From: Zootoca vivipara
Lineage: Eukaryota
Assembly (NCBI RefSeq): GCF_963506605.1
Contig: NC_083280.1
Location: 41,602,001 to 41,666,000, forward strand
DNA: 64,000 nucleotides
Direction of reading: 5' to 3'
Shown here: positions 1,237-45,000 of the stretch, piece after piece
Numbering within the stretch: the first letter of the stretch is position 1
Layout: each line of letters begins with the position of its first letter
Program-made: the position numbers and the translations under genes
Notes under the pieces: model-generated
Told to the model about the DNA's origin: nothing
Seen by the model: only the letters and a program-made list of their open reading frames with translations
Databases searched by the model: none

Positions 1237-3705
1237 TGACAATAAGTGAAGAGGCACTTAGCAGCTGACTTGGCAGTGTCTGTTCAAATAATGTTTCCTG
1301 ATCCAATCAGGATGTTCAAAGTGGGTTGTGGCAAGGTCAGGAAGTAACTACTCTTGCCTCCTTAGGAGTGTGCTGTGCACTTTGAATATCCTGGTTCTAG
1401 AAGGATAGTACTGTGCTGCAGAACTGGTTTAGTCCTTTGTGCAAGACATTTCCACCTGCTGTATTGTGCTTGAAGAATGGTTGTTTGGTCAATAGCGACT
1501 TGGATGTATTTTGTTTTTCAAAATTTAGATTAACTTGATGACCTGGCCCTTAATCTCCCTGTTCCATCATGACTCTTTCAAGATTAGACTGTTACTATGA
1601 TCTGAAAATAGCAGATTGCTCCACTGAAGTCAATAAAGCATCATAGTTTTTAGAAAATTTGTTTACACTATTTTTTTATACTAAATTTATAATTTTCCAG
1701 CTACAAATAACAATCATAGCTTGCTTTCCATTGCTCTCAGATTCTGCTGTCATCTTTCATCAAGCTACAGCTTTCTATTCACCATTTGCAAACTGAGCCA
1801 TATGACCATTTTTGACATAGTGAAGTTACTCCAGATTTTCACTGACCTTTTGAATATTCCAGCATCTGGTGAGATTGTATGCTCTATATCATATGACAGA
1901 AAACATTGGGATCTTTCTAAGTTATTCTCAAAGTAGACCCATTGAAATCAATGGACATGTTAGTCCTAACTCAATGGATTTACTCTGAGTATGACCCCAT
2001 TACAGGGAAACTAGCTAAGCTGTGTAAGTTTCTATCCCGGAGTTTGTCAGACCACTATTCATCATACCAAAATAATGAGGAAATTTGTAACCGTGCCAAA
2101 AATAATTGTGTGAATCAATCCAAGTCTCCTTAAAGTAAAGAGCAATAGATTGGCTAAAATACAGCACTTTGACTTAACTGGAGTGCAGATCAACCTACTT
2201 TATTGTCAGGATACAGAGAAGCACAATATGTTGTCATTTTTGTGTTTTTTTAAAAAAAGATTTAACTTATCAAAGAATCAAACAAATAAGTCAAAGCGAT
2301 GTTGGTTTTATGCTTTACCATGTATCCTAGACACATAGCTGCCAAGTTTTCGTTTTTCTCGTGAGGAAGCCTATTCAGCATAAGGGAAAATCCCTATAAA
2401 AAAGGGATAACTTGGCAGCTATGCCTAGACAGAGTCACTGAATTAAAGCTGCAGTCTTTAAGCCCCATTTAACTTAATTTGGACTTACTTTTAAGTAGAC
2501 AGGTATAGTGTTGCATTAAAAATTGCCCATTTGAGAGCTGCCATTGGATTTTTATATGTATTGGTATTCAGGAGCTGGACTTATATCTAGAATCTCAGAT
2601 TACTTTTCTGCTTTTTGATGCTTGGTTATAAGGATTAGGGGGGGAACAGCTTTAATCATTGAAAAAAGGACTGTAGTTTTCATTCCTTTTTTCTAAAGCT
2701 TCTTTTCAAATTGTGCATTTGTCACTGTCACAATTTAATTAAAAGATTTAATCATTATCTCTCAGTGTGCTTTAATGGCAATTTATTAAAGACATTATTC
2801 ATTGAGAGTGTTGCCTATTCTATTTGTTGTTATGGTATTTTTTTAAAAAAACAGCTAAGATGAAAATGGCTTGGGAGTATTTACATATTTTTATTCTCTA
2901 TTTTAATCCTCACATTCTAAATGCAAAGCACATGGATATCACAATTTTTGTATTTTACAGTTTAATAACTGTATTTATTGATATTAAGGCTTGTAGCCAA
3001 TTTGACAAATTACTCTTCTATTTATTTAGAGTGTGGTGCAGAGATACATTTAAATAACTATTGATCATCTCACTGCTCAAACTGATTGCTCTAATAATAG
3101 CCTCTCTATTTCCCTTTGAAATAAAAATTGAAAAAAGGTGACACAATGGATTTTTATCAGACAAGAATGTTATTTGTGTGTTATTATCATCATTCTAAAT
3201 AGAATCATGCAACATAGGCTCCCATTCTTAAAGCACCCTACATGCTTGGAGCACTGTTTTCTTTTTGTTTCATCAGCCCTCTTTATCATCTGCCTCTCTA
3301 GGGTAAAATAGCTTTCTAATTTGAATATCATTTTAGGTCAGTCTCTGATTTCCTCATGAATTGGCCAAAACATGTAAATCTCCATTGGGTTTTTTTCAGG
3401 CTTAATATGCTCAGAAAATAAAAATTGCAAATCCTCTGAACATTTAAACTGTTTATATTTTTACAGTATTGAACCTACCTGTGTAGACCTTAATTCCCCC
3501 CTCAGTAAAGTATAAATGAGAAATCCGTATCTTAAATTAAGCCAAGCCAACTGTTCATTTAAATGAAGGATGCTATGTAGCTGGAAAAGGCCTTAGTTAT
3601 CACACATCTTCAGTTTTGTGAGAATAAATAACCCAGCCATATTGGGGGTATTACTGTTTCCCCCTTCTTTATAGTGCAGGGTACATACAGTAATATTTCC
3701 AGACA

Positions 3706-3726
3706 ATCAGCACAATGGATAGCTCC
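3706..3726 (+). promoter_or_regulatory. Candidate RE1/NRSE (REST-binding) element upstream of the AMER3 coding exon
   Basis: aTCAGCACaATGGAtAGCTCC versus consensus TTCAGCACCACGGACAGCGCC; two core mismatches. Confidence 0.4.
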
Positions 3727-4457
3727 CTGTGTCAATCCTCTGATCGAAGAAGAATTGCAATAATTATTCTTTCACAGCTAATGCAGAAATCAACGACTGA
3801 GGAAGAATAACAGCGCACAGGAATGCGGGCAAGAAATTAATTTGCTTCGCAAGATTTCCTTCATGCCAACAGTGTGCTACGATAGTTTATGCAGGTCTTC
3901 CTCGCCCCTCCTTGAAGCTGAGAGATTCCCCCCCCCTTCTTCACACCTTATGGAATAACTGCATGGCAGCCAGCACAGTAATCTAACCAATCACTAGCCT
4001 ACCTCCAGAGAGAGAGCTCAACAACAACAACAAAAATATTTGCAGTATACCTGAGAGGAAATCAGCATTTCATTTCTGGCTGTATTTTTGGCAGCCCGCT
4101 GTATTAGCCCGCAAAGCTTCCACCCTGCCAGATCTCATCACCTTTGCTGTTCAGTGCCTACACAAAGAATGGAAATGCACATTAAGGTCCGGCATCAGAA
4201 AGAAGGGCCACGAAGAAGCAACTAGCCCCAAAATAATCACACACACACACTGCCACTGGGACAAAGAAAAACAAACACACCACACCCTTGCACCAAAAAC
4301 CTAGTAAAAAGCCAAGGCAACAAAATATCCCACTCACCATGTTTTACCATGCCAAAAGCAGAAATCTTTGTAGTTATATTCTTGTTGCTGAGGCTGCTAA
4401 GTGTTTTATGCAAAAGCTCCTGCAATGCATGTGAGACTCTAAGGGGCTGGTTGCTTC

Positions 4458-4603
4458 NNNNNNNNNNNNNNNNNNNNNNNNNNNNNNNNNNNNNNNNNNN
4501 NNNNNNNNNNNNNNNNNNNNNNNNNNNNNNNNNNNNNNNNNNNNNNNNNNNNNNNNNNNNNNNNNNNNNNNNNNNNNNNNNNNNNNNNNNNNNNNNNNNN
4601 NNN
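4458..4603. other. Assembly gap (146 N)
   Basis: Run of N. Confidence 1.
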
Positions 4604-5429
4604 GAAATATTCCCAGGTATTTGATATCACACCCTGCATGGACTTTGGGTTTTCACATGTAGCCAATTTTAGAACAGAGAGGATTCTTTCAGCCATCTGT
4701 AAACACCAACTGTTAGCATCCACACCGAAGCATTTCTGCTTCTTGTTATTCTCTGCAAATAGAAGGTTTTGAAATGCCCATATTCCCCCAGTGTTTATAA
4801 TGCTGGTTTTCAAAGACGATTAGTGTGTGGATGGATATCTAACAGTTTGTAAGCAGACGTCATTATCCATTGTGTAGTAAGGTCACTGTACTATGTCCCT
4901 TTTTGAAGATGTTTAAATGGAGCATAGTGGGAAAGAAGGCAGCTCTCTGTGTCTTCTGCTTATTTGGAAGGCATTTTGCATCAGAAGGGAGATGGGAAGT
5001 GAGAAAGGCGGCAGGAAAAGGCTCCCCACTAACCAGGGCACTTCTAATCTGTTGCTTTTTGGTGGGTGGGGTTCAGTCACATACTGGCAAATTCACATTG
5101 TACAACTGAAGTGGATTTGGGGCTCTTTTGGAAGGCACTTCCAAAAACAACCTGACTTTCTGCAGTAAGGAAAGTGGTGTGGAAAATAAGAATTGCTTGA
5201 TATCACTTAGGTTGCACCACGCCCATATAACCTCCCAACAAATAAATCAGAATTAATGCTTGAAGAACAGTGAACATCTTATAACCTCCCATAAATTTTG
5301 TGCGGACAAATCAGCGCGAATGTTCAATGAACAGGCCTCCTGGGAGTAATTTGAGCCATTTCTTCTTCAGTGGCATTGCTGTCTGTAAACATTTTCTGTT
5401 TTATTTAAATGTTCGAAAAGAACACAAGA

Positions 5430-6080
5430 GGAACCCATGTGGTCCAGGAAACAGCTCTCACAGTCGTCAGCCAGATGCCTGTGGGAAACCCGAAAGCAGT
5501 ACCTGAGCAGAGCAGCATTCTTTGCTTTTGTGATTCCCAGCAACTGATATTAGAGGCTAGTAGCCATTGATAGCCTTATCCTCTTATTGACATGTCTTAC
5601 CCTCTTTGAAAGCCATCCAAGTTGATGGCCATCATCAGTACCTCTTGTGGAAACAAATGCCATAATACTAGTAGCAGCAGCAGCAGTAGTACTAGTATTT
5701 TATTTATTACCTGCCTTTCACCCTAAGGTCACAAGGCAGGTTACGAGTTTAAAATGTAACATTAAAAACAGCTAAAAGCTAATTGTGATCACAAGAATGA
5801 GGTGGGTGAAGGGGTGGGTGTTTTGTGTTGTGTCAAAGTCCAGGGTAAAGAGGTACATCTCCAGCATATGAGAAAACAGTATAATGAAGGTACCAGGCAC
5901 ACCTCTGAGGAGGAGGGAATTCCACAATCTAAGGGCTGCCACAGACCATGTCTTTTCTTGGGCCACCTGAACTTCTGAAGCTGTGTAAAGAAATACTTTA
6001 TTTTCTCTGTCCTGAATCGTCCAACATTCAACTTCATTGAACGCCCACCCCAGAGCTCTAGTATTATGACTGGAAACCAA
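5430..6080 (-). mobile_element. Cluster of degraded CR1 and L2 LINE 3' fragments (boundaries approximate)
   Basis: Translations resembling CR1 (KLNVGRFRTEKIKYFFTQ) and L2 (SVAALRLWNSL) C-termini, with (AGT)/(ATTT) tails. Confidence 0.6.
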
Positions 6081-7689
6081 AAGAGCGTCATCTAACCACA
6101 GTCGTTCCTTTGCTTCCTCCTTAAACCTTTGCCTACCTGGAAGGTGTTTTTGAACTAATGCTTCTTGCTTGCCTGGATGGAGGTAAAGGTAAAAAAAGGT
6201 AAAGGACCAGGGGTTATAAATGTAGAATGTAGAAACTAACCTACTACACATATTCAGTGTTCTGCCCGCTTTTGCCTCTGACCTCACGCACCACTAGCAT
6301 GTGGCCCTCAAAAGCTTGTCTAGAAGGGAATATGGCCCTTGCACTTAAAAAATACCGCCTCCTTGTTTAAAATCTTTTTTCTGACATTTAGCCAAAAAGT
6401 TTTAGGGCATTCAGATGGAAGGAAGGAGCCTCTAAAATGTTTTTTTTAAAAAAAAAATTCCCCTATTCCTTCCAATGCACATACCAATGTCTGTCACCTG
6501 AAGAAAAAAATGTAGCTCTAAGGTTTCCTTCACTCTGCAAAAAGACCTTTAACTTTTAATCAGATATTATTTTATATATTAGAAATATACATATGTCAAG
6601 TCCTTATATACCTAACTTGTTTCTTGGGACACAGGTCCTAAAGATTTTTTGTGGGGGTTTTCTTGGCTGACAACACTAGAGTTGAGCCAAGTGCTTCTAG
6701 CAACCCTGAGAGGTTTCCACCAAACCTTTGTCAAGGAAGACAAACTTCATTGGGATTTCTGCCCTTGTTTTGGCATCTTAAAATAGAATTCAGTTATCCC
6801 ATGTTAGTCATCCCTGATGTAAACTCTGGTCTTTAGCAGCCTAATTGGGTTACGTTTGTACTGAAAACTTTTCTGAGGCCATTTCTAAGATTGGGGGAAC
6901 TATCCATACTCTGCTGAATGTAAAGCAGCTTGTTCTGCAGGAATATTAAGCAGTAGGGAGTTTTCCTCCTTATATTAACTTTCGTAGGCTAGAAACATCC
7001 ATTGCAGGGGTTAGATGGCAACAGGTTGAAAATATGGTTCTACAATATGAGCCCGCCGCCATGCTCCATTTCACATTTCGCTGATAACTGTCTGATAGAG
7101 AAAGCAACAGACAGGGCCAACGTTCAGAGCACTCCCACCCATGAGGCAAGGTGAGGTGACTGCCTCAGGCAGCAGGATCCACAGGGGCAACAGATCCCAA
7201 TGTAGATCTTTTGTTTCCCCTTTGTTCCTGATGTCAATCTTCACTCCCCCCCCCCTTCTTCCCTGGCATGGGGGAGTGCCATTTTGTCTTGGTGCCATAT
7301 GTCTTGGGCTGGCCCTGTTAGAATTGAGCAGCCACATACTGTAGCAAGAAAGTGGGCCGAAAGCCTGGCAGCCATTTTGTAGACAGAAGGCAATCAGGGA
7401 GCCAGCAATACAAGCCAGTAGCATGGAAGCTGCTCTTTCAGTGCATGTCTCTTTGTGTGGAGCAGAGAACTAAAACCATGCTTGTCGGAACAGAATCAAA
7501 AAGTGAATTACTTCACAACAGCCAGTCTGTTAGGCGAGCAGCACGATCTGTTGTGTTTGTTAGTGTCCCTGGTTTGCTTTACGCAAGCTCTGGACTTCAT
7601 CTACTCTTGTGTCTAGAGAGGTGTTTCATACTATGCCAGATGTAGAGACAGTGCGAAGGAGGCCCCCCCCCTTCTTTCACAATGCTCAA

Positions 7690-8807: not shown

Positions 8808-8889
8808 TGCATCTTTGCTTGTTGCTAAACCTCAACATTGAAGAACTTCTTTTGTCTACATCAGCTGCCATTCCAAATCTCTGGGGGAA

Positions 8890-9942
8890 ATGAACTTCTC
8901 ACTATGTGTGCCAGCCAGGATTTTGAATGCAACCTTCTCCCGCTATAGAGAAGTGCCCTCAAACGCCTCCTTCACTTTGGATAAAACTTCATTCCAAAAC
9001 CTGCAAGAATTGATCATCTATCCTCCATACTCCAAGACAATGATGTTCCTGATCCCGCCGATATTGTGCCTTACAGCAGCCATCCTGATCAACCCTTTCA
9101 TTTTGTTGGTGATTCTTTCCCATGTCAACATCCGTCAGGAGACAAGATACCTGCTGTTGGGAAATGCTTTGCTCTGTGATTTGTTATATCTGATACTCTA
9201 TGCTATGTCTGCAGTTTTCAATGTAATGAAACTCCACCTCCCCAAGAACCCCTGTGTGCTCCTGCTGTTTCTGCTGGCCATGACTTACTGCGGAGGGTTG
9301 CTAACGGCTGCTGCCATGGTGCTGGATACATACTTGGCCATTTTGTGGCCTTTGCATTACATCTCCATTTTGCCATCTTCACGAGCAAAGAAGCTGATAC
9401 TCTTCCTATGGATCTTGTCTGGGATTTTCCCTGGGATTGTCTTCTTAATACTCAAGTTTACCCAAAAACCCAGTGTATGTCCAGTGGAAAACTGCTCTGT
9501 CCCCATAATACTGGTAATGACTCTACATGGAGATGGGGCTGTGAAATCCTGCTATGTAGTCTCCGTTTCTGCCCTTTTTCTCTGTCTGTCCCTCATACTC
9601 TGCTGTTATATGATCCTGTATTTCAAAACAAAGCAGTCGGGAATATGGAAAAGCATGTTCTCTAGAGCCAGTGTGACGTTCCTGATGCATCACATTCTCT
9701 TGTTCTTTCATTTCTCTCCCCTCTTGGCTATTGTGGTGGACTCCTTGCTTTATGTCAATGCTGTCATTGGGACACAGACAGGGATATTGGTCTCTCTGAT
9801 AATATGCAATGTGCTGATAATCTTGCCCAAAGCTCTGTTGCCTTATCTGTGTGGGCTTCGATACAGGGAGATAGCCTCATCCCTCAAGTTCTTCTTCAGA
9901 CGGAAGCGCATGACTGCCGTGTCTCCAGTCTCAACCACTTGA
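8890..9942 (+). CDS. GPR148: Orphan class A GPCR GPR148(-like), single exon, 350 aa
   Basis: Seven hydrophobic segments. Motifs RQETRYLLLGNALLCDL, VLDTYLAILWPLHY, KQSGIW..FSRA and VLIILPKALLPYLCGLRYREI parallel recalled human GPR148 (RQEPHYLL.AN.LLSDL, VLHTYLAVIHPLRY, KTSGIW..YSRA, VLMMLPRAMLTYLYLLRYRQL). Adjacent to AMER3 as in human. Confidence 0.88.
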   Translation: MNFSLCVPARILNATFSRYREVPSNASFTLDKTSFQNLQELIIYPPYSKTMMFLIPPILCLTAAILINPFILLVILSHVNIRQETRYLLLGNALLCDLLYLILYAMSAVFNVMKLHLPKNPCVLLLFLLAMTYCGGLLTAAAMVLDTYLAILWPLHYISILPSSRAKKLILFLWILSGIFPGIVFLILKFTQKPSVCPVENCSVPIILVMTLHGDGAVKSCYVVSVSALFLCLSLILCCYMILYFKTKQSGIWKSMFSRASVTFLMHHILLFFHFSPLLAIVVDSLLYVNAVIGTQTGILVSLIICNVLIILPKALLPYLCGLRYREIASSLKFFFRRKRMTAVSPVSTT

Positions 9943-12295: not shown

Positions 12296-12425
12296 ATTTG
12301 CTCAGTTGGCTAGAATGGTGCTGATAACACCAAGGTCGTGGGTTCAATTCCCGTATGGGGCAGCTGCATATTCCTGCATTGCAGGGTCCCTCAGGGTCCC
12401 TTCCAGCTCTTCAGTTCTATGACTC
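12296..12425 (+). mobile_element. tRNA-derived SINE with CR1-like 3' tail
   Basis: A-box-like gctcagttgg, B box ggttcaattcc, then ggtcccttccagctct...ttctatga. Confidence 0.7.
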
Positions 12426-12624
12426 ATTACAGGGCCACCCTTGCATGCTGTGCTATTGTTTATTACTCCAGTTTGCTGTTTCTCATAGAGACGTATCAGT
12501 ACCACTTATTTCTGATGTTATTTATGGTTTTCAGAGTTTTAATAGGAAGAGCTTTGCTCAGAGAGGAGCTTAATGGTCCGTGCTTCCCCAAAGCTCTATA
12601 CATGATTCAGAAGAAAAGAGGTTA

Positions 12625-12839
12625 CAGGTAGGTAGCCGTGTTGGTCTGGATCGAAGTAAAATAAAAAAATTCCTTCAGTAGCACCTTAAAGACCAACTAA
12701 GTTTTTATTTTGGTATGAGCTTTCGTGTGCATGCACACTTCTTCAGATACCTATCTGAAGAAGTGTGCATGCACACGAAAGCTCATACCAAAATAAAAAC
12801 TTAGTTGGTCTTTAAGGTGCTACTGAAGGAATTTTTTTA
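12625..12839. mobile_element. Penelope-like (PLE) non-autonomous insertion forming a perfect 88-bp-arm palindrome, flanked by a 17-bp TSD
   Basis: 12662-12749 is the exact reverse complement of 12752-12839 with a 2-nt loop (cc). TSD cagaagaaaagaggtta at 12608-12624 and 12840-12856. Ends ggtagccgtgttggtc and ttagttggtctttaaggtgc resemble squamate PLE termini. Confidence 0.85.
12712..12751 (-). ncRNA. Minimal type I hammerhead ribozyme motif (PLE-type); second copy on the + strand at 12752-12789 with a shorter stem I
   Basis: 5'-GGUAU CUGAAGA A GUGUGCAUGCACAC GAAA GC UC^AUACC-3': stem I GGUAU/AUACC, core CUGAnGA and GAAA, palindromic stem II, 1-bp stem III with palindromic AGCU, NUH triplet CUC. 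Confidence 0.72.
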
Positions 12840-13382
12840 CAGAAGAAAAGAGGTTATCATTCTGCAGTCGTTGCAAAGGACATTCAGGCTCTGAAGCTTG
12901 AGAAGAAATCCATCGTTTAACACAAGGAGGGAACAAACCCTAGGCTAAAGGGTGGGGGAGCCACATCACTTTTCAGAATGCCCGTTTGACCCGTCCATCA
13001 ATGGCTCGAGTCAATAACACGACTATGTTGGAAAGAAAGTAAACATTCAACAGTACATCCTTTAATCCTTTATGAGGCTACTTTGTTCCCCCAGCAACAT
13101 TTAAAAATGCAGAGAAACATATACAGGGGCCCTTTCTACTGAGGAGTGGGTAAATAATGTTCTGTTGACACAGAAAGTTGGGCTACCAGCCAAATTTTTC
13201 AAGCTTAGTATGGACACAAACCAGATCCAGGCAGGTGGCTGCATTCAGAGAAGTCTCTTTCCCTATCAACGTTTATTTATCCTCATGCCAAGAAGATGTT
13301 TTTGAGGCATGAGGGAAATGTACTCAGCGTGACTAAGATGTATGATTCTACAGTATCTAAATATATTAGGTAATTTCATACA

Positions 13383-17969: not shown

Positions 17970-18271
17970 TCAGACTGAGACTGCTCCAGGCACTACCTTA
18001 CGGATATATGTGTAGGACTTCCGGAGAGTGACACTTCCGTGATGGGAGACTCCGCGGGGGAGGACACATTCTTCCGTCAGTTTCTGGGTCTCAGCATCCC
18101 AACACAGCACAGTGGCAATGACGTCGTTCTTCTCGTCTCGCCCTCCGGTGATGAACAGCTTGTTGTTGCAAGGAGCAATCCCACAACTTGCTCGTTCGTG
18201 GCTTAACTGGGTCGCCAGGCACCAGGCGTCTGTGAGTGGGCTGTAAGAATAGACTGCCCTCATAGCTCCAC
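17970..18271 (-). CDS. KLHL6: Kelch-like 6, coding exon 7 (last)
   Basis: Acceptor cttcag|GT; (G)[16 protein letters not shown]...[10 protein letters not shown]; 302 nt. Candidate poly(A) signal (tttatt on +) near 17577. Confidence 0.96.
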
Positions 18272-19277
18272 CTGAAGTGGGAAGAGAGCAAATGATTCCT
18301 TCTGGCAAATTTGTTTCTTTTTTTAAATGCGTTCTAGGCTTCTGGCCCAAATGTTAGTGTCAGGTTTCCTCAACCCACAAGACAAAGAGAGGACAGGACA
18401 CTCATTCCGAAAAGACAGCCAGCCAAAGACTTTACTTCATCAACTAGCCTTCATCAACCGGGTGGGTGCCTTCCAGTTGGTTTGGACTACGTTTTCCAGA
18501 AGCCCATGCTCACTGAGGCTGCTGGGAATTGTAGCCAAAGACATCTAAAAGCCACCAGGCTGGTTGTTTTCATCAATGGGAACTGTGACCCCCCCCCCAA
18601 CCATGGCACAGCATATCAGTATGAAACATCAAAAGGGCACTGGGGATCTTGCAATGCATTTCAGCTTTCTGTTGAACTGGAGGCTGTCTCCTCACACTGA
18701 GAGACACGAAATAGAAACCTATGAATATAAGTATTTTGCCTGCATAGTTTTTGACTGCTACTGTAGCTGTGAAACAATGCATGATTATAAAGAAAGAAAA
18801 TCTTATTTTTAAACTTACTTCCCCATTTGTTGCCTGGTTCTTTGTTAAGTGGGTAGAAAGGGGAAGCCAGTTTACTTTTGTTAGCTGGACGTGGTCAAAC
18901 AAGATTTTATAGCCTAACTCCTATGCTTTCAACCCACACATGTGGGCTCCCACAGGGATAAATTGCAATTAATATATCCTCTCCTACCAGTGCTGTAACT
19001 CTCCAACCGTTTGACTTCACCACCAAAGGTGCTTTTTCCATTGTCTACTGAGACAGATGAATGCCAACCAGTCAGTCAAAACCATTAAAACCCATCCCCC
19101 AATTTGCACCTCTTTGTGTGCATGCACAACCCAATTAAAAATATCTTGGCATGGAATTCAAAACTATTCCCATTCCCCCAAGTGGCTATTCAACAATGCA
19201 GAGGGACCGGAGTTTGACTAAATTGCCTTCTTGTCCTTCAACTGGAATTCTAGAAAAAGCATTTCAGCTGTACCTAC

Positions 19278-19491
19278 CAACAACATAGATGTGGTCATGG
19301 AAACTGGTGGCATTGACACATTTTGCCTCAACAGGCATGGGTGATTTTAAGGTCCAGCTGTTTGTTGCTGGGTCATAACATTGTGTTTTGTCCGTGGCCA
19401 GCTTCCCATTGGGTCCTCCCCCAATCACATAGAGCTTCTTCTTGTAACTGGCGGCCCCAAATGAACTGACGTTGACCATGAGAGGAGCTGC
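19278..19491 (-). CDS. KLHL6: Kelch-like 6, coding exon 6
   Basis: ttatag|GCA...GTT G|gtaggt; [14 protein letters not shown]...HIYVV; 214 nt. Confidence 0.96.
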
Positions 19492-19955
19492 CTATAATAA
19501 TGCAGAACAACAGAATTGAGGGATGTGCTGAAGGTTCATCAGGACTCCATGCGTTATGTATATTAATTCTCTTTTTTTTAAAAAAAAAAAGTAAAGTGGA
19601 GAGAAATGAGTTGGGTGCAAGTCACGAAGAGTGTATGACTGACACCATTTGGTTTAAGATGCCTATGGCATTCAAAGGGACTTACTTCCAGGTAAATGTC
19701 TAGAATTGCCACCTTTGTTTTGCATAATGTGCATCCATGTATGATGGTTGATTGGGTAAAAAGAAAATGCCATTCTAAATTTATCTTCTAGATAATCTTA
19801 CATTTGGATTATAGATGCAGGAAATGCCAAAAACAAAACAAAACATTTTTGGTGTGAAAACACCATTTGCCTATTATCCAACATCTGAGAGTAGAAAGTC
19901 GTTGTTTTAGTCTGTTTCCTGTTTCATCACTACCAAAAGCACATCTGTACCTTAC

Positions 19956-20158
19956 CTCTGACCAACAGTTGTGAAAAGAATCATATGTCTCCACACTGTT
20001 GATTCTTTGTATACCGTCGTAACCACCAATGACATACACTTTGCCACCCAATACAGCCATTTTGTGTCTCCATCTTCCAACGTTCAAATATTCAATTTGG
20101 ATCCATTTGTTGATGGATGAATTATATTTCCAAACTTCGTGTTGCGTTTCTTTCCCTC
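19956..20158 (-). CDS. KLHL6: Kelch-like 6, coding exon 5
   Basis: cgcag|GA...GAG|gtaagg; [11 protein letters not shown]...HNCWSE; 203 nt. Confidence 0.96.
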
Positions 20159-20387
20159 CTGCGATGAATGTAATATACCAAATTAGAACCAAACTTCCAG
20201 AATTTGTTCCTTGATTTTTGATTTCTAAATATATATAGCAATATTTCCCAAGAGCGAGCTCAATTCTTTTTTTAAAAAATGAGGGTAAAAGTTCCACAAC
20301 AAAAGCATTGTAGGATAACTGCAATTTCACCATAAAACTTATAGTCTGGCAACAGTCCAACTCCTGAAAGAATTATGAACATTGTTA

Positions 20388-20697
20388 AAAGGTAAAGAGA
20401 CTCCTGACCATTAGGTCCAGTCACAGACGACTCTGGGGTTGCGGCACTCATCTCACTTTACTGGCCAAGGGAGCCGGCGTACATGGCGGACCAGAGCAGC
20501 ACACGGAAACGCGGTTTACCTTCCCGCCAGAGCGGTACCTATTTATCTACTTGCACTTCGTGCTTTCAAACTGCTAGGTTGGCAGGAGCAGGGACCAAAC
20601 AACAGGAACTCACCCCATTGCGTGGATTCGAACCGCTGACCTTCTGATCGGCAAGCCCTAGGCTCAGTGGTTTAACCCACGGCGCCACCTGCGTCCC
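20388..20697 (-). mobile_element. Sauria SINE with 15-bp TSD
   Basis: (ACCTTT)-type tail (aaaggtaaag on +), tRNA-like head gggacgcaggtggcgc...ggttcgaatcc. TSD ttatgaacattgtta / ttatgaacgtcgtta. Confidence 0.9.
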
Positions 20698-20929
20698 TTA
20701 TGAACGTCGTTACTTAAACCTAATGTTTAATAGTCTCAGGTCATAGAATCATAGAATTGTAAAGTTGGAAGGGATCGCAAGGATTATCTAGTTCTAGTCC
20801 AACCTCCTGCAGGAATCTTTTGTCCCATCCAAAGATAGAATCTTTGGAGCTAAAGCCCATAACCCTGAGATTAAGAGTCTCATGCTGTAACTATCCCCCC
20901 CCCTTCATGGGCATTATGATCTTCCTTAC

Positions 20930-21167
20930 CTGATATGTAAACTTCATTTTTTAATGTGGCACAAGCAAACTCCACCCATTTTTTATTCTCACACTCGGTT
21001 TCTTGTTCCGTGTTTGGCAGTTTTGCCACCTCCAAACGACTGCGCCTCAGAGGATCAAGGCAGGTGACTTCAGCTACGAACTTTTCATCCTTTGTGCAGC
21101 CACCTATGATCAAGAAGACCTCTGACTGGAATTCGTGCATTCTCGGCTTTGTTCTTTCAGAAATGAT
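20930..21167 (-). CDS. KLHL6: Kelch-like 6, coding exon 4
   Basis: tttag|ATC...TCA G|gtaagg; [18 protein letters not shown]...KNEVYIS; 238 nt. Confidence 0.96.
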
Positions 21168-21414
21168 CTAAATGAAAGCAAAGAGCTGAAGAGATCTTTA
21201 TCTTTAAACATTTTAACAAAAGCCCCCCCTTCACTCCCAGTAAATAATTCTCCTAGGGACATATCAAGCTCCAGACACTTTCAAGAGTGTCTACCCACCT
21301 TCCAAATGCAAGATGTGTTCATTATTTTATTTTATTTTTGGATTAGAAAAACAGCATACAATAAAACTCTTATAACTGTAGGTTACAAAACTCATCCCGA
21401 TCAGTGTACTAGTG

Positions 21415-21631
21415 CAGTGCTCCCCAACCTTTTTATCGCCGTGGACCAGTCGATGTTTGATAATTTTACCGCAGCCCGCTAAAGGGGGGGGCGTTGATTG
21501 TTTATATTTTATTTAGATTGTTTTGATTTAATAATTTTAATTTAATTGTATTTAAATGTTCCTTGGGCGGACCGGTACCAATTGATCCACGGACCGGTAC
21601 CGGTCCGTGGCCCGGGAGTTGAGGACCACTG
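21415..21631. mobile_element. hAT-type MITE
   Basis: Ends cagtgctccccaac / gttgaggaccactg; 8-bp TSD tactagtg / cactagtg. Confidence 0.85.
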
Positions 21632-21981
21632 CACTAGTGTATACAATATATTGTAATAAACATTTCACGGATTATTCCAAAAGATCTAGAAGGCATGATT
21701 TTAAGAGTTATTTGCATGCATTTAATGCATGGTTGTTACCTATTTAAAAATACTCATTCTTCATAAGACACACATGCCTAGCTCTATGAAATTCATGAAA
21801 TAAATAGTCTAACATTAAAAACCCCACCTTTTCCCCTAACAATTGAGCAAATTGTGGCCATACAGCTTCAATATAATACTGACTATTTATACCAGGGATG
21901 GAGAAAATATGACTCTCCAGCACCAACAAACCCTGAAAATTGGCCGTGTAGACTGGAGCTGAAGTCCATCAAAGTCTAGAG

Positions 21982-22356
21982 CAGGGGGTGGCAAGGCTTA
22001 CCAGGCATGGGCTAGATCACTCCTGCGGAGATCCTCTGTGGGCCGGGCTGGTGCAGCGTGACACCGGAAATTGCGTCTGTGCATGTCTGCGGCGCTGGAA
22101 ATCGCTTCTGCTCATGCCCAGACGCCGAAAATCGCACCTGCACAGAAGCGATTTTCGGTGTCTGGGCATGCACAGAAGCGATTTCTGGCGTCTAGGCATG
22201 CAAAGAAGCGCTTTCCGGAGCTGTGGAAGAGAGTCCCTATGTCGGTTTAGTGGGGACTTGTTGAGCAGGTGGCTCGGTTCGGGGACGGCTCGTGGGCTGG
22301 TTAAACAGCCTCTGTGGGCCGCTTCCAGCCCGTGGGCCGCAGGTTGAGGACCCCTG
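21982..22356. mobile_element. hAT-type MITE with internal repeats of about 30 bp
   Basis: cagggg...cccctg ends, perfect 8-bp TSD gtctagag, internal repeated gcacagaagcgatt...cgtctgggcat units. Confidence 0.85.
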
Positions 22357-23136
22357 GTCTAGAGGGCTGCTCCTAATTTAGACCCATTTCAATCTGGCAT
22401 CAGGTCTGAATTGCCACTGAAATGGCCTTGATTGTCTCACCTTGTGCTGAGGGAATAACAGGGGAAGTGCAACCCTGTTAATTCTCCTGGACCTCTCGAT
22501 GGCATTCATACTGGAAGTTGGATAACCACCATTTTGATAGCTCTAGTCTTACATGGAAGATCTTTTTTCTGAAAGTTATGCTGGGAAACTATTGCTCTGC
22601 ATTTCGCCTTGCTCTACCTATTCAATTTATATCCCAACCTTTCTCCCAAAAGAGCCCAGGGTGGCTATGGTGTTCCACAGGCCTCCTCATCCCGTCCTCC
22701 CTGCTTTATAACTTCTATGTGATACCACTGGAGGGAAGTTATTCAAATATGTGCTGTGAAATACCATTGATATGCTGCTGCCACCCAACTCTATTTCTTC
22801 TTTGCTTATGAGGCCGTTGAGGACCTGAACTGGTGACTGAGGTCAGGAACCTGCGGCCTTCCAGAAGTTGTTGGACTTCAGCTCCCATCAGCACCAAACG
22901 ACGTGGCCAATGGTCAAGGATGATGGAGATTGTAGTCAGAACAACATCTGACAGGCGACAGGTTCACCACTCCTAGTATAAGTTGTTACTAATACTAGAT
23001 CAATAAAATTATCAGTATCAGCGTAATATAAAACTAGTAATTATTTATTTACTTATTTACTATATGAGTATAAAGGGGTGTGAATTTCTCTTCCTTTTTA
23101 TGCAGACTTCTTTCTTCCTTGAAATAATATTCAATA

Positions 23137-23444
23137 CAGTGGTACCTCAGGTTAAGAACTTAATTCGTTCCGGAGGTCTGTTCTTAACCTGAAACTTTTC
23201 TTAACCACCACTTTAGCTAATGGGGCCTCCTGCTGCCGCCGCGGCGCAATTTCTGTTCTCATCCCGAAGCAAAGTTCTTAACCCAAGATACTATTTCTGG
23301 GTTAGCGGAGTCTGTAACCTGAAGCATCTGTAACCTGAAGCGTCTGTAACCTGAAGCGTCTGTAACCTGAAGCGTCTGTAACCTGAAACGTCTGTAACCT
23401 GAAGAGTCTGTAACCTGAAGAGTCTGTAACCCGAGGTACCACTG
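23137..23444. mobile_element. Tc1/mariner-type MITE containing a 16-bp minisatellite
   Basis: TA|cagtggtacctc...gaggtaccactg|TA; (tctgtaacctgaagcg) x7 plus a partial unit at 23311-23432. Confidence 0.9.
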
Positions 23445-24025
23445 TATATACAGTCCAACTCCCACCATAAAGCACCCTGAACCTACGTAACCTTCCACAA
23501 CAATAGCTTGAGAATCTGCATTACAAACTTTAGGCTTCTTCCTCTTTCCAAATATATACTGATAAGGTGTTCAAAGGGAAAGTATGGCAGCTGTCCAACT
23601 CCCATACATTGACACTCATACCTGAAAAATAGTCACAGGTGGGGGAATCTTGTAGCACCACCTCAAAGTCTCATTTATTAGGGCAAAAGCCGTCATGGAC
23701 TTCACCAGAGGCAGAAAGCATTGTTGGTAGTCAGCAGTGTATGTATGTTCATGGTTACGGGGGCAAAATATGTAAGTAATTGAACCACTGTATATCTGTT
23801 AGTCTTTATGGTGCCACAAAACTATAAGAGATTAGCATGGCTACCTTCTTGAAAATGTTTCCATAGAGATGGATGTTAGGAAGTTAGCCTTTCCAAAAGC
23901 AGGATGGCACTGCCACAAGCAGGAACACCACAGAAAGCTCATTGCAGAGTATCTATAGATAGTTCAAGCAGCTCATTGAATCACTAGTCTGAACTCTTTC
24001 TTAATACGATCAACATTTAACTCAC

Positions 24026-24475
24026 CTCGTTCCCTGATAGATGGTACATTCTGGCTTCTTGAAGCAAAGGAAAGACATCGGGGCACTGTCGGATCAGTGG
24101 CTCAGCTTCTACAGTCTCTACAAAATACCAAGGGTCCAGAAGGGGTAGTCTGACACCCTCAAGGATGTAAGGCAGGAGAGGAAGCCTGTCTGCTATTTTG
24201 TAATGCACCCAGTTTATAACCATCTCAAACACTTGAGCTTCGTCAGTGACATAGAGTTCATCACTCTTTAGCATACTATATAGGACATCCACAGGCAGTT
24301 CTAAGAACTCGTCGTAATTCAGTACTTGGGAAAAATTCTGGATAATATACCTCTTGACCTGCTGCTTCAGTTTATCAAGTGAATGAGCATCAGCCAGTCT
24401 CAGAATCCCAACACAGTTTTCTGGATGAAGAGCTTCGTTGAGAAAATTGGAGCAAGCTTCTACCATTCGCAAAAA
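24026..24475 (-). CDS. KLHL6: Kelch-like 6, coding exon 3 (BACK domain)
   Basis: tgtag|TTT...GAG|gtgagt; [12 protein letters not shown]...YHLSGNE; 450 nt. Confidence 0.97.
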
Positions 24476-25026
24476 CTACAAGCAGGAAAAGAAGCACATT
24501 AAGTTACTACCGGTATGCAGACAGGTCCTCCTGTGCTTGTTCGTTTATTTTATAGTACTGCTGTTAACAAATCTTAAGAATGTGAGGAAGCAATGTCCCT
24601 GATGTAAAATGTGCAAATGCCATGTTTAGTATGCATTCTTAGTGAAGGCAATTTGCCTCTGAATGCCAGTTTCTGGGAACCTAAAGTGGGGAGAGTGCAG
24701 TTGCACTCAGCTTGCAGTCTCCCCATAGGCATCCGATTGGTCACTGTGGGAACAGGATGCTGGACTAGATGGGCCTTTGGTCTGACCCAGCAAGGGGCTT
24801 CTTATGCTTCATTGAGCTTAATGCTGCTCATCAATATAATAAACCTTCAAAATGCTAGGATGTGGTAAGTGGGGATTCCAGGGGAGAAAGGAATTCTGTG
24901 ACAAGTGCGAAAATAGTGTCAGGTAGGCAAAACTGATGTCACAGGGCCTATTTGCACAATCATTTGGAGAGTGTAAGAGGCTGTACAAAAGGTGAGGCTC
25001 CTGAAGTGTCCAGACACCATCTTGAC

Positions 25027-25130
25027 CAGGCATCCCCAAACTCATCATCCCTGACCATTGGTCCTGTTAACTAGGGATGATGGGAGTTGTAGTCCCAAAA
25101 CAGCTGGAGGGCCGAGTTTGGGGGTGCCCG
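25027..25130. mobile_element. Short hAT-type MITE (internally deleted relative of 28992-29127)
   Basis: caggcatccccaaact / agtttgggggtgcccg ends; TSD atcttgac. Confidence 0.8.
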
Positions 25131-26624
25131 ATCTTGACTGTGAGTCCTGGAAGACTTGCTCCCTGCACTGCTGGCCTTTTTCTACCTGGCCATATTGTTT
25201 AGGAAGTTGGTGTGTGTGTGTGTGTCTTTATTTTTAGATCTTATGGTTTATATGCAGATTGTTCAATTTGGTTGTGTACTTTTTGATGTGCTTATTTATT
25301 GTTGGCTATGTTTGTAACTAAGTAAATATTTTTATGTTGTAAGCTGCCTTGAGCATGGTTTTAACTATGGAAAAGCAGCATCCACATAAAATGATGGTGG
25401 TGGTGTAAGATGTTTTCACATCAACATACCATGCACATGGTCTGGATCAAATGTTGAAAGGGGGTGAAGGGCAGATCACATTGGCTGGGTGGAAATGAGT
25501 TTGAGAGATTACTAGTTCTAATTGCACCCATCTCAAACTTCCATTTACTGTGAATTTGTTTTCATTGTTACTCAGGAAAGAATGCTGCCTTTGGTTAACC
25601 CTGGATAAAAAAGGAAACATAGGCCCTGGGTAGTACATCTGATCTGGAACTCCCTGGAATCTTGCACTGCTCAGAGATTGGGAGTGGCATGTACCACTAT
25701 ACATACCAAAAGCCCAGCTAAAATCTCAAGGAAAGGCTGAGCACCCAGGGTGCTTCCAGATATCAATAGTTCAGGAGTTTTCTCTATAACTTTTTTAAAA
25801 ATCTGCACCTAACCTTAGAGTTGATGGAGTACAAAGTAGTGCATGACTTTTGAAAAAAGTAGTTAAAAGGAAAAGAGGGAAGTGAAAAATCTGAAACACC
25901 ATTTTTAATGGTGATGGTGTATTTTAAAGAAATGTTTACAGCAGAGTTTTGTGCTGAGAACCGTGTCCTGTTGACACATTTAGGCTACTTATCATAACAG
26001 ACCTGGCCTATAAACCACTGGTTCCTGTTTTTTAAATATACATGTGGGCAAACATTTAAAGAAACGAAGCTCTCAAATCAAAATTAGATGTACTTATTCC
26101 ATTTGATAAACTTCCCCTTTGTATCGTATTTACAGCCAGCTTTATCTGCCACACATGGAGTGGAGCCATGCAGGGCTGGAACTACAAGTTAATGGGACAA
26201 AAACTGGAAGGAAAGCTGGTCTGTTTAAAAATAATTCATGTGCTTCAGCATTTTTTATTATTGTTGTGATCAAGCTGAAAAATTAAAAAGCTTGCTTGCT
26301 ACTTTGAGATATTTTAGGTCGTCCTCATTATGCCAGTCCCATTAAAGTGGAGTAGGTGTAGGGATGAGCAAACTGGTCCATTATGGTTTATATTGCCTCT
26401 CACTGTGGAGGCAGAACACAGCCATCATGGTTAGTTAAGGGTAGGAGCAGCATTATCAAAGTAGCAGAACTAGGGATGGACACAAGGACAGCACTCTAGT
26501 TGGTCCTGTCATAGGCAAGCAGGCAGCCTTCCTGACAACTCTAGGGGTGGGGGTGGGGTGGAGCTGGGTATGCTTTCCATTATTTAAGTTCGGAATAGAG
26601 TAGTTGCTTTGGAAGACAATAATC

Positions 26625-26885
26625 CAACTGGAGAACAGCCTTTACCAAAGGTGTCATGGGCTCTGAAGATGCTCGAACTCAGGACGCAAGGGAGAAACTT
26701 GCTAAGAGGAAGGCACGCTTGGCAAACCCTCACCATCTACTCCCATCCGGAAACCTATGTCCCCACATGTCCCCACATGTGGATCCAGAATTGGCCTCCA
26801 CAGTCACTTACAGACTCACTGTTAAAACCGTGTTTATGGAAGACAATCTTACTCGGCTACGAGTGATCGCCAAAGGAGGAGGAAC
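26625..26885 (+). mobile_element. RTE-clade LINE 3' end distinct from BovB, frameshifted
   Basis: EDARTQDAREK.AKRKAR...GNLCPH then GSRIGLHSHLQTHC* in another frame (C-terminal Zn-finger-like end of RTE), short 3' UTR and purine-rich tail. Confidence 0.75.
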
Positions 26886-27251
26886 AGGAACTGGGTAAAG
26901 CAGGCAGGCAGAGCCAGCCCTTAAACAGCAAAAAAACAGTTTAAGACTGCGGTGCTTTGCACGCTTAATTGGGAATTGATCTTGGACTTACTTCTGAGTA
27001 AGCACATTTTGATTCACACAGCAAGCCTTGTTCTCCTTGTGAACTTAGGCTGAACATTAGATCTCGTCATTAAATAGAACAGCCAATGAAACCCCAAAGC
27101 AAAATATTGTTTCAAAGTAAAATTCATGTTGCCCAAAGACTAATGCAACAGCAGTTAATTAGCCATTTTCACACTAAACAATGGGCTAAAACTAGTACTC
27201 ACGTGAATTTGGTTTGGTTTCTATGTGCTGTAAATATTTTACTTCACTAAC

Positions 27252-27417
27252 CTGAAAAAGACTAGCGGCTTCCAGGACTTTCTGGACATTTTCCTTAGTG
27301 ATCAGCACTTTGCTTGTGTAAGTGTAATCCAAAAGAATCTGCATTGTTTCAGCATCAACTCCCTTAATTACTATTTTTTCTTCATACTTTTCTTTCAAGT
27401 CGTTGCAAAACATTGCC
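27252..27417 (-). CDS. KLHL6: Kelch-like 6, coding exon 2 (BTB domain)
   Basis: ttcag|G GCA ATG...CAG|gttagt; [12 protein letters not shown]...ASLFQ; 166 nt. Confidence 0.97.
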
Positions 27418-28391
27418 CTGAAGGGGAAAATAGGTAATTTCTTAGAAGACCAGTCTTTCTGAAATACACTCTGGAAACAAGAATACTAATACTTCCCCAG
27501 TCACTTCATGTTTATGCTATTTTTCTATTTTAAAATATTGAAAGTTGCTAACAATATATATCAGACCAGAGCAATAATAAATAATTTACTGTAACTACAA
27601 AACCATAAGAGTAATCCTTTAAAACCATCAAACTGATCGATAATACACATGGCAATCTCAGTACACATTAAAATGCATCTTATAAGTCTGAACATTATCA
27701 TTTAAAAAGATTGTTTTTAATGCATGCTATTAATTTGTTTTTGATATTTTTGTATACATACTGTATTGGGCTATAGTGCCTTATTAAAATGCAGATTTGA
27801 AAAATTAAAATAAATAAATAAAATGCAGTGTCTAATCAGCTAATGAGTATGGAATAAATGTGTTTTTATTCCAGAAGCTAAAAGCCAAGCAGAGGTGGAA
27901 CTGTGTAGATCTCATGCTGGTGCCATGACAAAGAAGAACCTCTTTTCGGTGCTCAGCTGTCATACTTCAGATGGCAAGAAGGCACAAATCAGAGTCTCAC
28001 ATATTGACCAGAGGCAAGTACACATGGGATAGCACAGTTCTCCTTCTAAGCCATTGGGGCTGTAAAAATCAATACTGTACTTTGAATTGACACCAGAAAC
28101 AAATTTGTAATCAATAAATATGGCATGATGCTGGAATAGATTATCTTTCCTTTGAGCCTCCATTAACACCTTGGCATCTGTATTTTGTTTCTGATGAAGT
28201 TTCAGAGACATATAGAGCATGTTATAGGAGGGACAGGTAGCCTGTAGCCCTCCAGATGTTGCTGAACCATCTCTGAGAGATGAGTGGCTAATAAATGTTT
28301 TAAAAAGAACCAATACCACTCCACAGCCTCCCTAGGATAAAAAGATGGAAATGAAAGACAGAACAGCTAGGTATTTTCAGCATATTGATGA

Positions 28392-28888
28392 TGTCAGGAG
28401 TATGGGCAGGAGTCAGGCTCTGGGGCCTGTAGTGCTTTGCAGGACTGGGGCCTGCCTCAGCTTGTGCTGGAGAGGCAAGGAGTGGTCACCCAGGTGAGGC
28501 CACTTGATAACTCACTGCACCTGGTGGCAGGAGCTGGGAGGGATAAAAGCTCAGCATTTCCCTTCAGCTCTTTGCCACAGCAACGCTATCCCTGCCTGGT
28601 TGCCTCTGGCCTCTCGCTCCTTGGACCCTTGCCTTGCGGACGCCTTGATCCTCAACCCTTGGACCCTTGCCTTGCCGATGCCTTGATCCTCAACCCTTGG
28701 ACCTTTGCCTTGCCAACGCCTTGCTCCTTGACTCCCAGACCTTCGCCTCTGCCTTGCTCCTTGACCCTGTGACTGCCTGCTGATGGACCCTCAGCCCTGC
28801 ACCTGTTCCTGCTTCTACGTCACCATCTTGCCTCTGGTCCTGACGTCCTCAGTCAGGGCTTCAACCGCCTGCCGACCGGACTGTGACA
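28392..28888 (+). mobile_element. Solo LTR (497 bp) with 5-bp TSD and internal tandem repeats
   Basis: TGTCA...TGACA termini, TSD gatga on both sides, repeats of about 38 bp (cttggacccttgccttgc..acgccttgatcctcaacc) at 28620-28770. Confidence 0.85.
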
Positions 28889-28991
28889 GATGACACCTCA
28901 ACTGAAATGTATGGAGGGCGTCATCCAGTGGTTTCATGGGGATGTTAAACAGCACAAGGGACCAGATGAACCCATTCAGTGCCCCATAAAC

Positions 28992-29127
28992 CAGGCTTCC
29001 TCAAACTCGGCCCTCCAGATGTTTTTGGCCTACAACTCCCATGATCCCTAGCTAGCAGGACCAGTGGTCAGGGATGATGGGAATTGTAGTCTTAAAACAT
29101 CTGGAGGACCGAGTTTGGGGAAGCCTG
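28992..29127. mobile_element. Palindromic hAT-type MITE
   Basis: caggcttcctcaaactcgg / ccgagtttggggaagcctg; TSD ccataaac. Confidence 0.88.
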
Positions 29128-29471
29128 CCATAAACCATTGTTCAGGGTGGATCAGCAGTTTCTCAGAACGTCCTCCTAGGAAGTCTTTCAGAAAGATGAG
29201 AATTTGCACCACAATATAGTCAGATAGTTCAGAAGGGTACCAGAGTACCATAAATGGTATTGAAAACCACTGAGAGGACAAATCAGTGGGATTACGCTCC
29301 CTTGTCTATCTCAGAGTGTAAGTCACCCACCAGAATGAGCAAGGGAATGTCTGTCCCAAATCTGGGACGGAAGCCAATTTGAAAAGGATCTAAATGATCA
29401 GTCTCATCAAGAAATAATTGAGCCACCACATCTTGCCCTGATATAGCCTTACAATAACTTTGTATTATTAT

Positions 29472-29503
<32 letters not shown>

Positions 29504-30039
29504 TTTCTCCTCCTAATACAGATAAGAGTTAAGGGTGAGGAACAGTGGCTTGTCTGGAGCTACCCAGTGAAGTTCAAGGCTGAGCTGAGATTTAAACTGG
29601 AAACCTCCCAGCTTCTAATGTATGTTCTTAATCACTCTGCTACACTAGGTCTACATACGGTATCTGTGTTTTAGCATTTCAGAATCCTAGAGTTTTTGGT
29701 CACTCTCTTGACATTTGTTTTCTCACATCTAACACTCAAATATTGCTGTATCAAATAATTGTGTGCTTCAAGGACTTATTGGTCAATTGTCCGATTGGAA
29801 TTGTTTTTTTCAGTGTAACTTGTTGGCTTAGAGCATGTTATTATTAATCTTGCTTCCCTTCTTTGAAGATAGAAACATTTGGGCTTTTTAAAGGCTAAGC
29901 AGTCGGAAAGGAGCCCCAAGTAAAGTTCACATAGGCAACCCTTTTTCGGCATAAAGCTGAACCAAAGCTATTGTGCCTTGTTCTCAAGGAGAGGGATCAC
30001 TCTAAGAAATAAAGTCACATTCCAACAAAACAACATATA

Positions 30040-30282
30040 CAGTGGTACCTCGACTTACGAATTTAATATGTTCCGAACGCACATTCGTAAGTCGAAAAAA
30101 ATTGTAAGTCAAATCCCACAGGAATGCATTGGGAGAAAAAATTCGTAAGTCGAAGCAACCCCATCTAAAAATTCGTAAGTCGAAAAAATCCTATCTAAAC
30201 CGCATCCAAGATGGCGGACGGAGCTCCGTTCGTAAATAGAAACATTCGTAAGTAGAGTTATTTGTAAGTAGAGGTACCACTA
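30040..30282. mobile_element. Tc1/mariner-type MITE (same family as 39211-39429)
   Basis: TA|cagtggtacctcgacttacga...gtaagtagaggtaccact; repeated ttcgtaagt motifs. Confidence 0.88.
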
Positions 30283-31945: not shown

Positions 31946-32208
31946 CTAAAATAATTGCTTGCCGCTGCTAGAACCACGCGGTGGCATGAGAATTTCATGT
32001 TGCCCACACACAGGGTAACATCTGTGAGGGAGTTTTCCAGTCGGAGGTTCTCCAAGCCGTTCTGCAGCACCATGGATAGGCCTGTGTCATCAAACTTAAC
32101 CCTTTCACTGATGGAGACCTCCACAAGCTCTCCCATGTTCCTGGAACACTCATTTTCCAAAGGCAACAGAGATTCCTCCTCCAAGTTCTTCTTCACTATG
32201 TCTCCCAT
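31946..32208 (-). CDS. KLHL6: Kelch-like 6, coding exon 1
   Basis: [10 protein letters not shown]...LTDVTLCVG...[13 protein letters not shown](R), donor AG|gtaagg; 263 nt. The seven exons total 1836 nt, 611 aa. Confidence 0.96.
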
Positions 32209-42768: not shown

Positions 42769-43147
42769 GTGAGAGGGCTGGGTTGATTTTTGTTGTTGTT
42801 ACATTCCTGAATAAATTCTTCATTATACTGATAGCTTTTATTTGAAACATTCAGTCTATTAAAAAACATTTAACCAATTGACCAGATAACATACTGTATT
42901 TTGTATTACCTCAGTAAAGATGTGATTTGCTTTTTATCTTTAGGCTTCTTTGTGTTGAAAAATTAAGGAACAACATGAGACAGAATGTGCGGGAGGGAGT
43001 ACATCACTACCACACAAGAAATGTTAAACACATTTGAGTGCTTTATATTTCAGTTACTTCAGTTGTTATGTCTTGAAAGTTTCTGAAGGCTAGTTGTTTT
43101 TTTTACTGAAACAGAGAAACATGACACCCCCCTGAAAATGTGACTTA

Positions 43148-44881: not shown

Positions 44882-45000
44882 GTGGAAGAATCAACAGCCG
44901 TGATGTGTGGATTTATAATTCTCAGCTTAACATTTGGATCAGAGTTGCCTCTCTAAATAAAGGGAGGTGGCGTCATAAGATGGCTGTTCTTCTTGGTAAA
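44882..45000 (+). CDS. KLHL24: Kelch-like 24, coding exon 3 (absent from ORF track)
   Basis: aaatgag|GT GGA AGA...GGT AAA|gtaaga; [39 protein letters not shown]; 119 nt. Confidence 0.95.

Follow-up and report, generated by a model that had tools for sequence, protein, structure and literature searches.

The palindromic 215-bp insert described here derives, as a stump, from a young Neptune-type Penelope-like element (PLE); it does not constitute a family of its own. It lies in a window of 64,000 nucleotides of the Zootoca vivipara genome (NC_083280.1, 41,602,001 to 41,666,000; positions without a prefix refer to this window), the insertion is real and recent, and the palindrome does not move as a unit but forms anew at each insertion. 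This promoterless back-to-back stump was probably produced when both target strands primed and the cDNAs ran off the RNA. The observations behind this reading are the anatomy of the insert, its parent, a long-plus-short rule for paired arms, markers shared between the arms, a common stop point and an extra C.

Anatomy of the Insert

The two arms of the palindrome (12662-12749 and 12752-12839) are exact reverse complements over 88 bp with 0 mismatches in the window sequence, and meet at a centre of CC (12750-12751). They are enclosed by a 17-nt direct repeat, CAGAAGAAAAGAGGTTA, at 12608-12624 on the left and 12840-12856 on the right, which occurs in these 2 copies only within the window. The arm length, the 2-nt loop and the 17-bp duplication of the preliminary description could thus be re-derived exactly. 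Since the final 5 nt of the repeat (GGTTA) are also the element's own end in an intact copy, L106, the real target-site duplication is 12 to 17 bp long; the commonest duplication length across the family is 12 bp. The insert is lopsided. The left arm, which is RNA-sense on the minus strand and represents the 3' part of the pLTR, carries 37 additional nt, the tail (12625-12661, minus strand), which lie between two putative RT start sites and, in the intact copy, just upstream of the ORF start. The right arm, RNA-sense on the plus strand, is short and tail-less. Neither an ORF nor a TATA box is present in the insert.

Each arm reads CUGAAGA-A-GUGUGCAUGCACAC-GAAA-GC-UC, followed by AUACC. On the minus strand, the candidate minimal type I hammerhead occupies 12712-12751, with the core CUGAAGA at 12746-12740, an extra A, a palindromic stem II at 12738-12725 and GAAA-GC-UC at 12724-12717, and cleavage is predicted between 12717 and 12716. 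The second minimal hammerhead lies on the plus strand at 12752-12787 (core at 12755-12761, predicted cut between 12784 and 12785). Judged by sequence, the features of PLE minimal type I hammerheads are all present, namely the CUGANGA and GAAA boxes, stems I and II, a palindromic vestigial stem III and an NUH site, and the earlier assignment to this class agrees with the accessible part of PMC4209133, the activity being predicted. The lengths first given for stem I, 5 bp on the minus-strand and 3 bp on the plus-strand hammerhead, are correct, but the "perfect" 5-bp stem is a by-product of the junction: the parent element has 4 bp (GUAU/AUAC), and the fifth pair is due to a single non-parental base, the C at 12751 (plus strand), which likely stems from a copied RNA cap or from RT addition at the template end. 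The adjacent G at 12750 (minus strand), which opens stem I, is the putative transcription start of the parent RNA and lies 31 nt below TA(C/T)ATAAG in the parent.

In an Rfam search at E up to 10, none of the 25 matches was to a hammerhead family; what was obtained were hairpin-driven miRNA matches below the gathering score only. This lowers the claim of Rfam membership only. In the genome copies, stems I and II are near-invariant and the flanks differ between subfamilies, with no compensatory pairs seen in a set of copies partly preselected by an exact core match. Among the first 100 of 20,955 matches, a recurrent variant at N7 of CUGANGA (A or C) and scattered single changes were present.

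Genomic Setting and Age

The insert is intergenic, 2.7 kb and 5.1 kb from the stops of two convergent genes, a single-frame rhodopsin-family GPCR ORF (8842-9942, plus strand) and a BTB-BACK-Kelch gene (17970-32028, minus strand); the latter is head to head with a further BTB-BACK-Kelch gene (41831-51110, plus strand). AATAAA hexamers are present within the insert on both strands (12660 and 12792, plus; 12704-12709, minus) and could truncate a long 3' UTR, if one extends through. Upstream, a high-copy tRNA-related repeat, probably a SINE, covers 12300-12420 (Rfam tRNA 32.6 bits at 12300-12362, very high read depth). Elsewhere in the window, the matches to this type of pLTR at 43985-44007 and 23798-23817 are short and degenerate and probably represent older Penelope scraps, and further short inverted repeats are found at 995-1236, 28992-29127 and 22093-22190.

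Perfect palindromes are a known artefact class, and among the contigs listed for four runs against 12300-13200 none spans the centre of the palindrome. In run X1, which may be the assembly's own sample, short-read contigs at 12362-12645 and 12818-13200 do span the two outer junctions and agree with the assembled orientation. Together with the duplication on both sides, the one-sided tail and hundreds of similar structures with their own duplications, this makes an assembly or library artefact such as a fold-back chimera extremely improbable; at the least, it is not an obvious one.

The site appears to be empty in three of the four runs, as judged from partial contig matches. In X3 and X4, which share the organism code, the contigs cease to match precisely at the duplication, leaving 13 further letters. 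X12, which has a different organism code, contributes a contig of 165 nt that matches from 12840 onward; its first 39 letters appear to lie on the left flank, where depth adds at 12579. A single copy of the target site would thus be present in these three runs. This, and arms identical to an intact copy, bear out the recent insertion that had been proposed.

The Parent Element and Its Family

The 30-nt core has 18,022 exact matches in the genome (1.44 Gb, 48 contigs) and 0 in the control, so its abundance is not due to chance. A looser hammerhead pattern gave 20,955 matches, again with 0 in the control, corresponding to about 20,000 hammerhead copies. One of these, L106 (C1:3426350-3435125), contains an open 902-aa frame with an RVT_1 domain (E 4.5e-12) and a GIY-YIG domain (E 5.9e-5), both above the curated cut-off. 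The arm of the window insert agrees base for base with the 3' pLTR of L106, and the tail does so with the bases immediately ahead of the L106 start codon. The insert therefore consists of two pLTR stumps whose 5' ends meet centrally, and the suspected Penelope-type origin is supported by this RT and GIY-YIG copy.

The parent displays the organization of an EN+ PLE: a single ORF with RT as well as GIY-YIG at its C terminus, and a pLTR with hammerhead in a partial-tandem layout. Furthermore, the translation of L106 contains a CNKPRCQLC linker (CxxxxCxxC) before ...CQQC...H...H, in line with the CX2-5CxxC and CCHH feature described in the accessible text of PMC8557442, in which the linker is shared with Nematis. 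The assignment to Neptune rather than Nematis is assumed from the vertebrate range.

L106 is itself a 4.9-kb inverted insertion (1939-6872) with 1,799-bp perfect arms and a 16-bp duplication. Its upstream pLTR is truncated; it lies 3,030 bp away from the 3' pLTR, ends 4 nt past the hammerhead cut site and therefore lacks promoter and core. In L095 (3495-5917), four near-identical 598-bp tandem units are present, each consisting of ORF end, pLTR and ORF start with a whole hammerhead, a layout which could form dimeric ribozymes. In L080 (1942-2653), one small inverted insertion is present twice, 512 bp apart, possibly by local duplication.

The Palindrome Forms Anew

The preliminary description had left it undecided whether the palindrome moves as its own family or forms anew, and had proposed a genome-wide search for the arm. 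This search gave 1,415 places in which both arms stop at most 16 nt apart around the core, with varied centres (control 2; nested matches may count twice). The exact centre of the window insert was found at 24 loci, which is 1.7% of the total. Within these 24, the extra C belongs to the tailed arm in 12, to the tail-less arm in 11 and is unclear in 1; three subfamilies are represented and the short-arm ends span positions 24 to 47. Since the centres vary and both polarities and three subfamilies occur, the palindrome forms anew at each insertion.

A unit moving as a retrozyme, SINE or MITE would be expected to have fixed ends, junction and polarity across its copies, and these were not found. 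The idea of a self-propagating non-autonomous family, retrozyme- or MITE-like and with twin hammerheads processing its RNA, draws on the 24 loci of identical centre and on small tandem retrozymes from PLE ends described in vertebrates in the accessible portion of a preprint (bioRxiv 10.64898/2026.07.22.740005). It is already largely refuted by the small share, both polarities, the different subfamilies and the scattered short-arm ends of these loci; moreover, the insert is promoterless, its hammerheads are masked and copies seldom end at the cleavage site. We therefore regard it as very improbable, if slightly less so than an artefact.

Two Outer Ends and a Proposed Single Template

The ends were studied at 149 loci, most of them within the initial 4 Mb of contig C1, comprising 202 arms (187 unique). 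The arms were found by a 28-nt anchor with at most 2 mismatches, which leaves out older subfamilies, and inner ends above position 135 are unreliable, as the extension halts at G runs or passes through fold-backs. The outer ends of the 114 arms that were not picked by their junction fall into two classes: 58 lie at a far site (long arms), with a mode 4 nt outside 12625, 56 at positions 19-46 (short arms), and 0 between. Out of 63 candidate inverted pairs, 5 were set aside as mispairs, shorter matches or pairs without duplication. All 58 inverted insertions with a duplication of at least 8 nt combine one long and one short arm, and in 56 the duplication measures 12-17 nt. Each of the 58 thus shows the hallmarks of an EN+ PLE insertion, i.e., an inverted 5'-truncated copy, a tail at one end and a target-site duplication. 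Unpaired arms comprise 30 long and 26 short ones, so both start sites work alone. Inverted insertions number 30 against about 56 solo ones, which means that about a third are inverted.

At arm position 81, a subfamily marker is carried by both arms in 18 pairs and by neither in 36, and only 1 of 55 pairs is discordant, compared with 24.6 expected if the arms were independent. In L065 and L129, private variants are common to both arms. This marker sharing could partly come from later gene conversion between the arms.

Identical arms and shared markers would also be obtained by fold-back, in which a single cDNA or an antisense RNA bends back at its end and serves as its own template, the short arm being a DNA copy of the long one. 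For rotifer Penelope, the published interpretation is self-priming on an antisense template, according to the part of PMC3846280 that is accessible. In addition, a TTCAG/CTGAA inverted repeat is naturally present at the stop point of one subfamily, and such junctions do occur. However, in L011, L106, L115 and L129 the tail-less arm extends 185-1,302 nt further in than the palindrome, so that neither arm is contained in the other, an arrangement that simple fold-back cannot give. The cases named are the clear ones, since a scoring of 15 non-nested pairs among 30 is noisy where inserts separate the arms (L073 looks misassigned). In addition, the short end coincides with the end of solo short insertions, the extra C sits on the long and the short arm about equally often in the loci of identical junction, and the TATA box at -31 and the C bias described below indicate a sense template. 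As a general explanation fold-back is therefore unlikely; it is possible at individual very short palindromes such as the window insert.

Twin priming could use two RNAs, one per protein subunit, or the upstream and the downstream pLTR of one tandem transcript. In favor of the former, the anole protein extends both strands and is predicted to be a dimer (PMC11167929, accessible text), and the use of two pLTRs fits unequal arms such as those of L106. Two RNAs drawn from the pool should, however, give about 25 discordant pairs, against the single one in 55 seen, although two RNAs of one active locus would escape this test, and the model does not by itself explain the constant long and short arms. 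We judge it somewhat less likely still than fold-back.

The Inner Stop Point and the Extra C

A total of 19,765 copies reach ...CAGATAC, and 9,727 of these go on into the parent GAAA 6-8 nt further; about half of the copies thus terminate at the opening base of hammerhead stem I. In the parent, the next base is A. Among the copies without A, the next base is C in 3,755 and G or T in 1,902 (66% C, with about 29% expected from base composition). Non-continuing copies with A after ATAC number 4,381 by difference; since these outnumber the C copies, the start is possibly spread over at least two bases.

In most subfamilies, TA(C/T)ATAAG is found at -31 from the stem-I G, with differing intervening bases; a crude regular expression gave a spacing of -29 to -37 in some subfamilies. 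The usual distance from TATA box to start is 30-31 nt. From this we infer that the stumped cDNAs ran off the 5' end of a capped RNA. An untemplated 5' G in L1 insertions has been linked to the cap being reverse-transcribed (PMC9341517, accessible text). The extra C could also be due to terminal-transferase activity of the RT or to microhomology at the junction, where CTGAAG is the reading in about 10 of the first 100 copies lacking A. The promoter type varies within the PLE class: Drosophila Penelope has a TATA-less internal promoter (PMC2377424) and rotifer pLTRs carry TATA and initiator motifs (PMC3846280), both according to the accessible portions of these papers.

Other explanations of the stop and of the C were considered and rejected or found to be minor. 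Only 351 places deviate at the cleavage site, and inspection by eye put about 60 of the first 100 down to point mutation; cleaved RNA is therefore a rare template, and the stop at the stem-I base with its C bias likewise speaks against it. A splice acceptor, an idea modelled on a Drosophila intron (PMC4209133, in the accessible text), does not fit, as one subfamily reads CAG and the window CAC-TG, and solo copies run directly into the duplication. Fold-back of the cDNA onto GGTAT as source of the C predicts C-AAAAT, and about 8 of 66 C cases begin with CAA by eye, which leaves it a minor contribution.

A Model of Two Primings and Run-off

The simplest model is two primings on one RNA. A parent copy would be transcribed from the TATA promoter of its pLTR, starting at the G which opens hammerhead stem I. 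The protein would bind the first pLTR of the uncleaved RNA and nick both target strands 12-17 nt apart. One 3'-OH would prime at the near site, which lies about 90 nt from the 5' end, and the second would use the far site on the same RNA, 37 nt beyond. The two sites cannot coincide, because one cDNA covers its own site. Both cDNAs would then run off the RNA 5' end, one of them acquiring the C, and joining of the two cDNA ends would result in the palindrome. In the RNA sense of 12625-12700 (minus strand), which holds both start sites, a stem-loop is found in which UUGGUCU pairs with AGACCAA; it may position both priming events.

Two-strand priming with run-off is, as stated, the probable origin of the stump. 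The full version is more demanding, namely that one capped uncleaved RNA is copied twice by a two-enzyme mechanism from fixed sites 37 nt apart and that this is routine in PLEs, and we regard the arguments for and against it as evenly balanced.

Predicted Fate of the Hammerheads in RNA

It had been suggested that RNA from either strand could fold either as a self-cleaving ribozyme or as a long hairpin. The computed folds do not sustain the first half of this. In read-through RNA of either direction, the antisense arm is made first, the hairpin reaches -156 to -164 kcal/mol, and for the hammerhead fold a share of 1e-42 to 1e-43 was computed, compared with 0.16 for the sense arm alone. Read-through RNA is thus predicted to form the 88-bp hairpin only, and the insert to be inert as a ribozyme. 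The two ribozymes cannot dimerise in cis, since they are on opposite strands. Minimal PLE hammerheads have been described as inactive as monomers and weak as dimers (PMC4209133; PMC6765202), and the hammerhead of the anole element PAc required protein (PMC11167929), as far as the accessible texts go.

RNA-seq reads mapped on L106 (3 runs of one study, about 6% of each) gave no pile of read ends at the putative start (L106:2034) or at the cleavage site. This is weak evidence, because the libraries are fragmented and dominated by embedded copies: 51-88% of the reads on L106 continue into unrelated sequence, from which it follows that they mostly come from such copies. On L106, reads joining opposite element strands are present in all three runs. 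Mismatches on L106 affect 51/44/30 A>G places in the three runs and 36/47/36 T>C places, in a mixture of subfamilies without matching DNA.

Relation to Known Systems

The architecture of the insert has already been published, and the present case is an EN+ PLE insertion with an inverted pLTR and a one-sided tail. Such insertions (PMC8557442; Pen2a_Av of Adineta, PMC3846280, both in accessible excerpts) share the head-to-head inverted pLTR, the palindromic junction, the duplication and the tail on one arm. In Pen2a, the inverted pLTR is 37 bp shorter, the tail here has 37 nt and published tails have 30-40 bp; also, both kinds of pLTR contain TATA-like and initiator-like motifs (PMC3846280, same excerpt). 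In contrast, only two pLTR stumps without ORF are present here, and the duplications measure 12-17 bp compared with 8-10 bp in the published excerpts. Unlike the published antisense self-priming (PMC3846280, same excerpt), the present data favor two primings on sense RNA.

The closest biochemical precedent is the Poseidon protein PAc of the anole, which, according to the accessible text, nicks and extends both strands, has two start sites that define the tail, is predicted to be dimeric and uses uncleaved RNA (PMC11167929). Seen or, in part, proposed here as well are two adjacent RT start sites bounding a tail, extension of both strands, an uncleaved main template and the lack of RNA-seq ends at the cleavage site. 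PAc differs in belonging to the Poseidon clade and in that its ORF begins inside the hammerhead, whereas the ORF of the present element starts right behind the tail, and a CxxxxCxxC linker is present. Neither inverted insertions nor run-off at the cap are treated in the accessible part of that paper.

With the metazoan PLE hammerheads of PMC4209133 (accessible text), the motif shares CUGANGA, the extra base before stem II, the G-C first pair of stem II, a stem I of 4-5 bp and a palindromic A-GC-U in place of stem III, and these are known in reptiles. Here, stem II has 5 bp with a palindromic loop and not 7-8 bp, and the two motifs abut without spacer; pairs of hammerheads on opposite strands, 100-700 bp apart, were noted in Schistosoma in 2014 (Cervera and de la Pena, PMC4209133, accessible text).

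For PLE inversions, we found no statement of two primings on one capped RNA in the literature, with subscription papers and older Penelope reviews mostly outside the search, and the term "twin priming" has 0 occurrences in the PLE papers searched for it. In the twin priming of L1, both nicked strands prime and an inverted product with flanking duplication results. The two-strand priming, the inverted product and the duplication are thus the same as here, but the L1 arms copy different parts of the RNA, whereas here the same stretch is copied from two fixed sites 37 nt apart.

Significance

As a single locus, the insert has little weight, being an intergenic copy among thousands and probably without function. 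The family data weigh more, as they bear on the origin of the inverted pLTR and of the one-sided tail of PLEs. A young family of 20,000 copies with an intact member leads to sharp predictions, namely always long plus short, one template, a stop at the cap and uncleaved RNA, which can be tested in an existing in vitro system. For the host, about 1,400 near-perfect hairpins, many of them probably polymorphic, supply dsRNA within transcripts as well as fragile DNA. If the proposed mechanism is true, run-off at the cap would yield thousands of 90-130-nt stumps and these near-perfect palindromes in one genome, and the inverted pLTR together with the one-sided tail would be explained without an antisense template. 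The genome would then record the start site of the element and its cap at single-base resolution.
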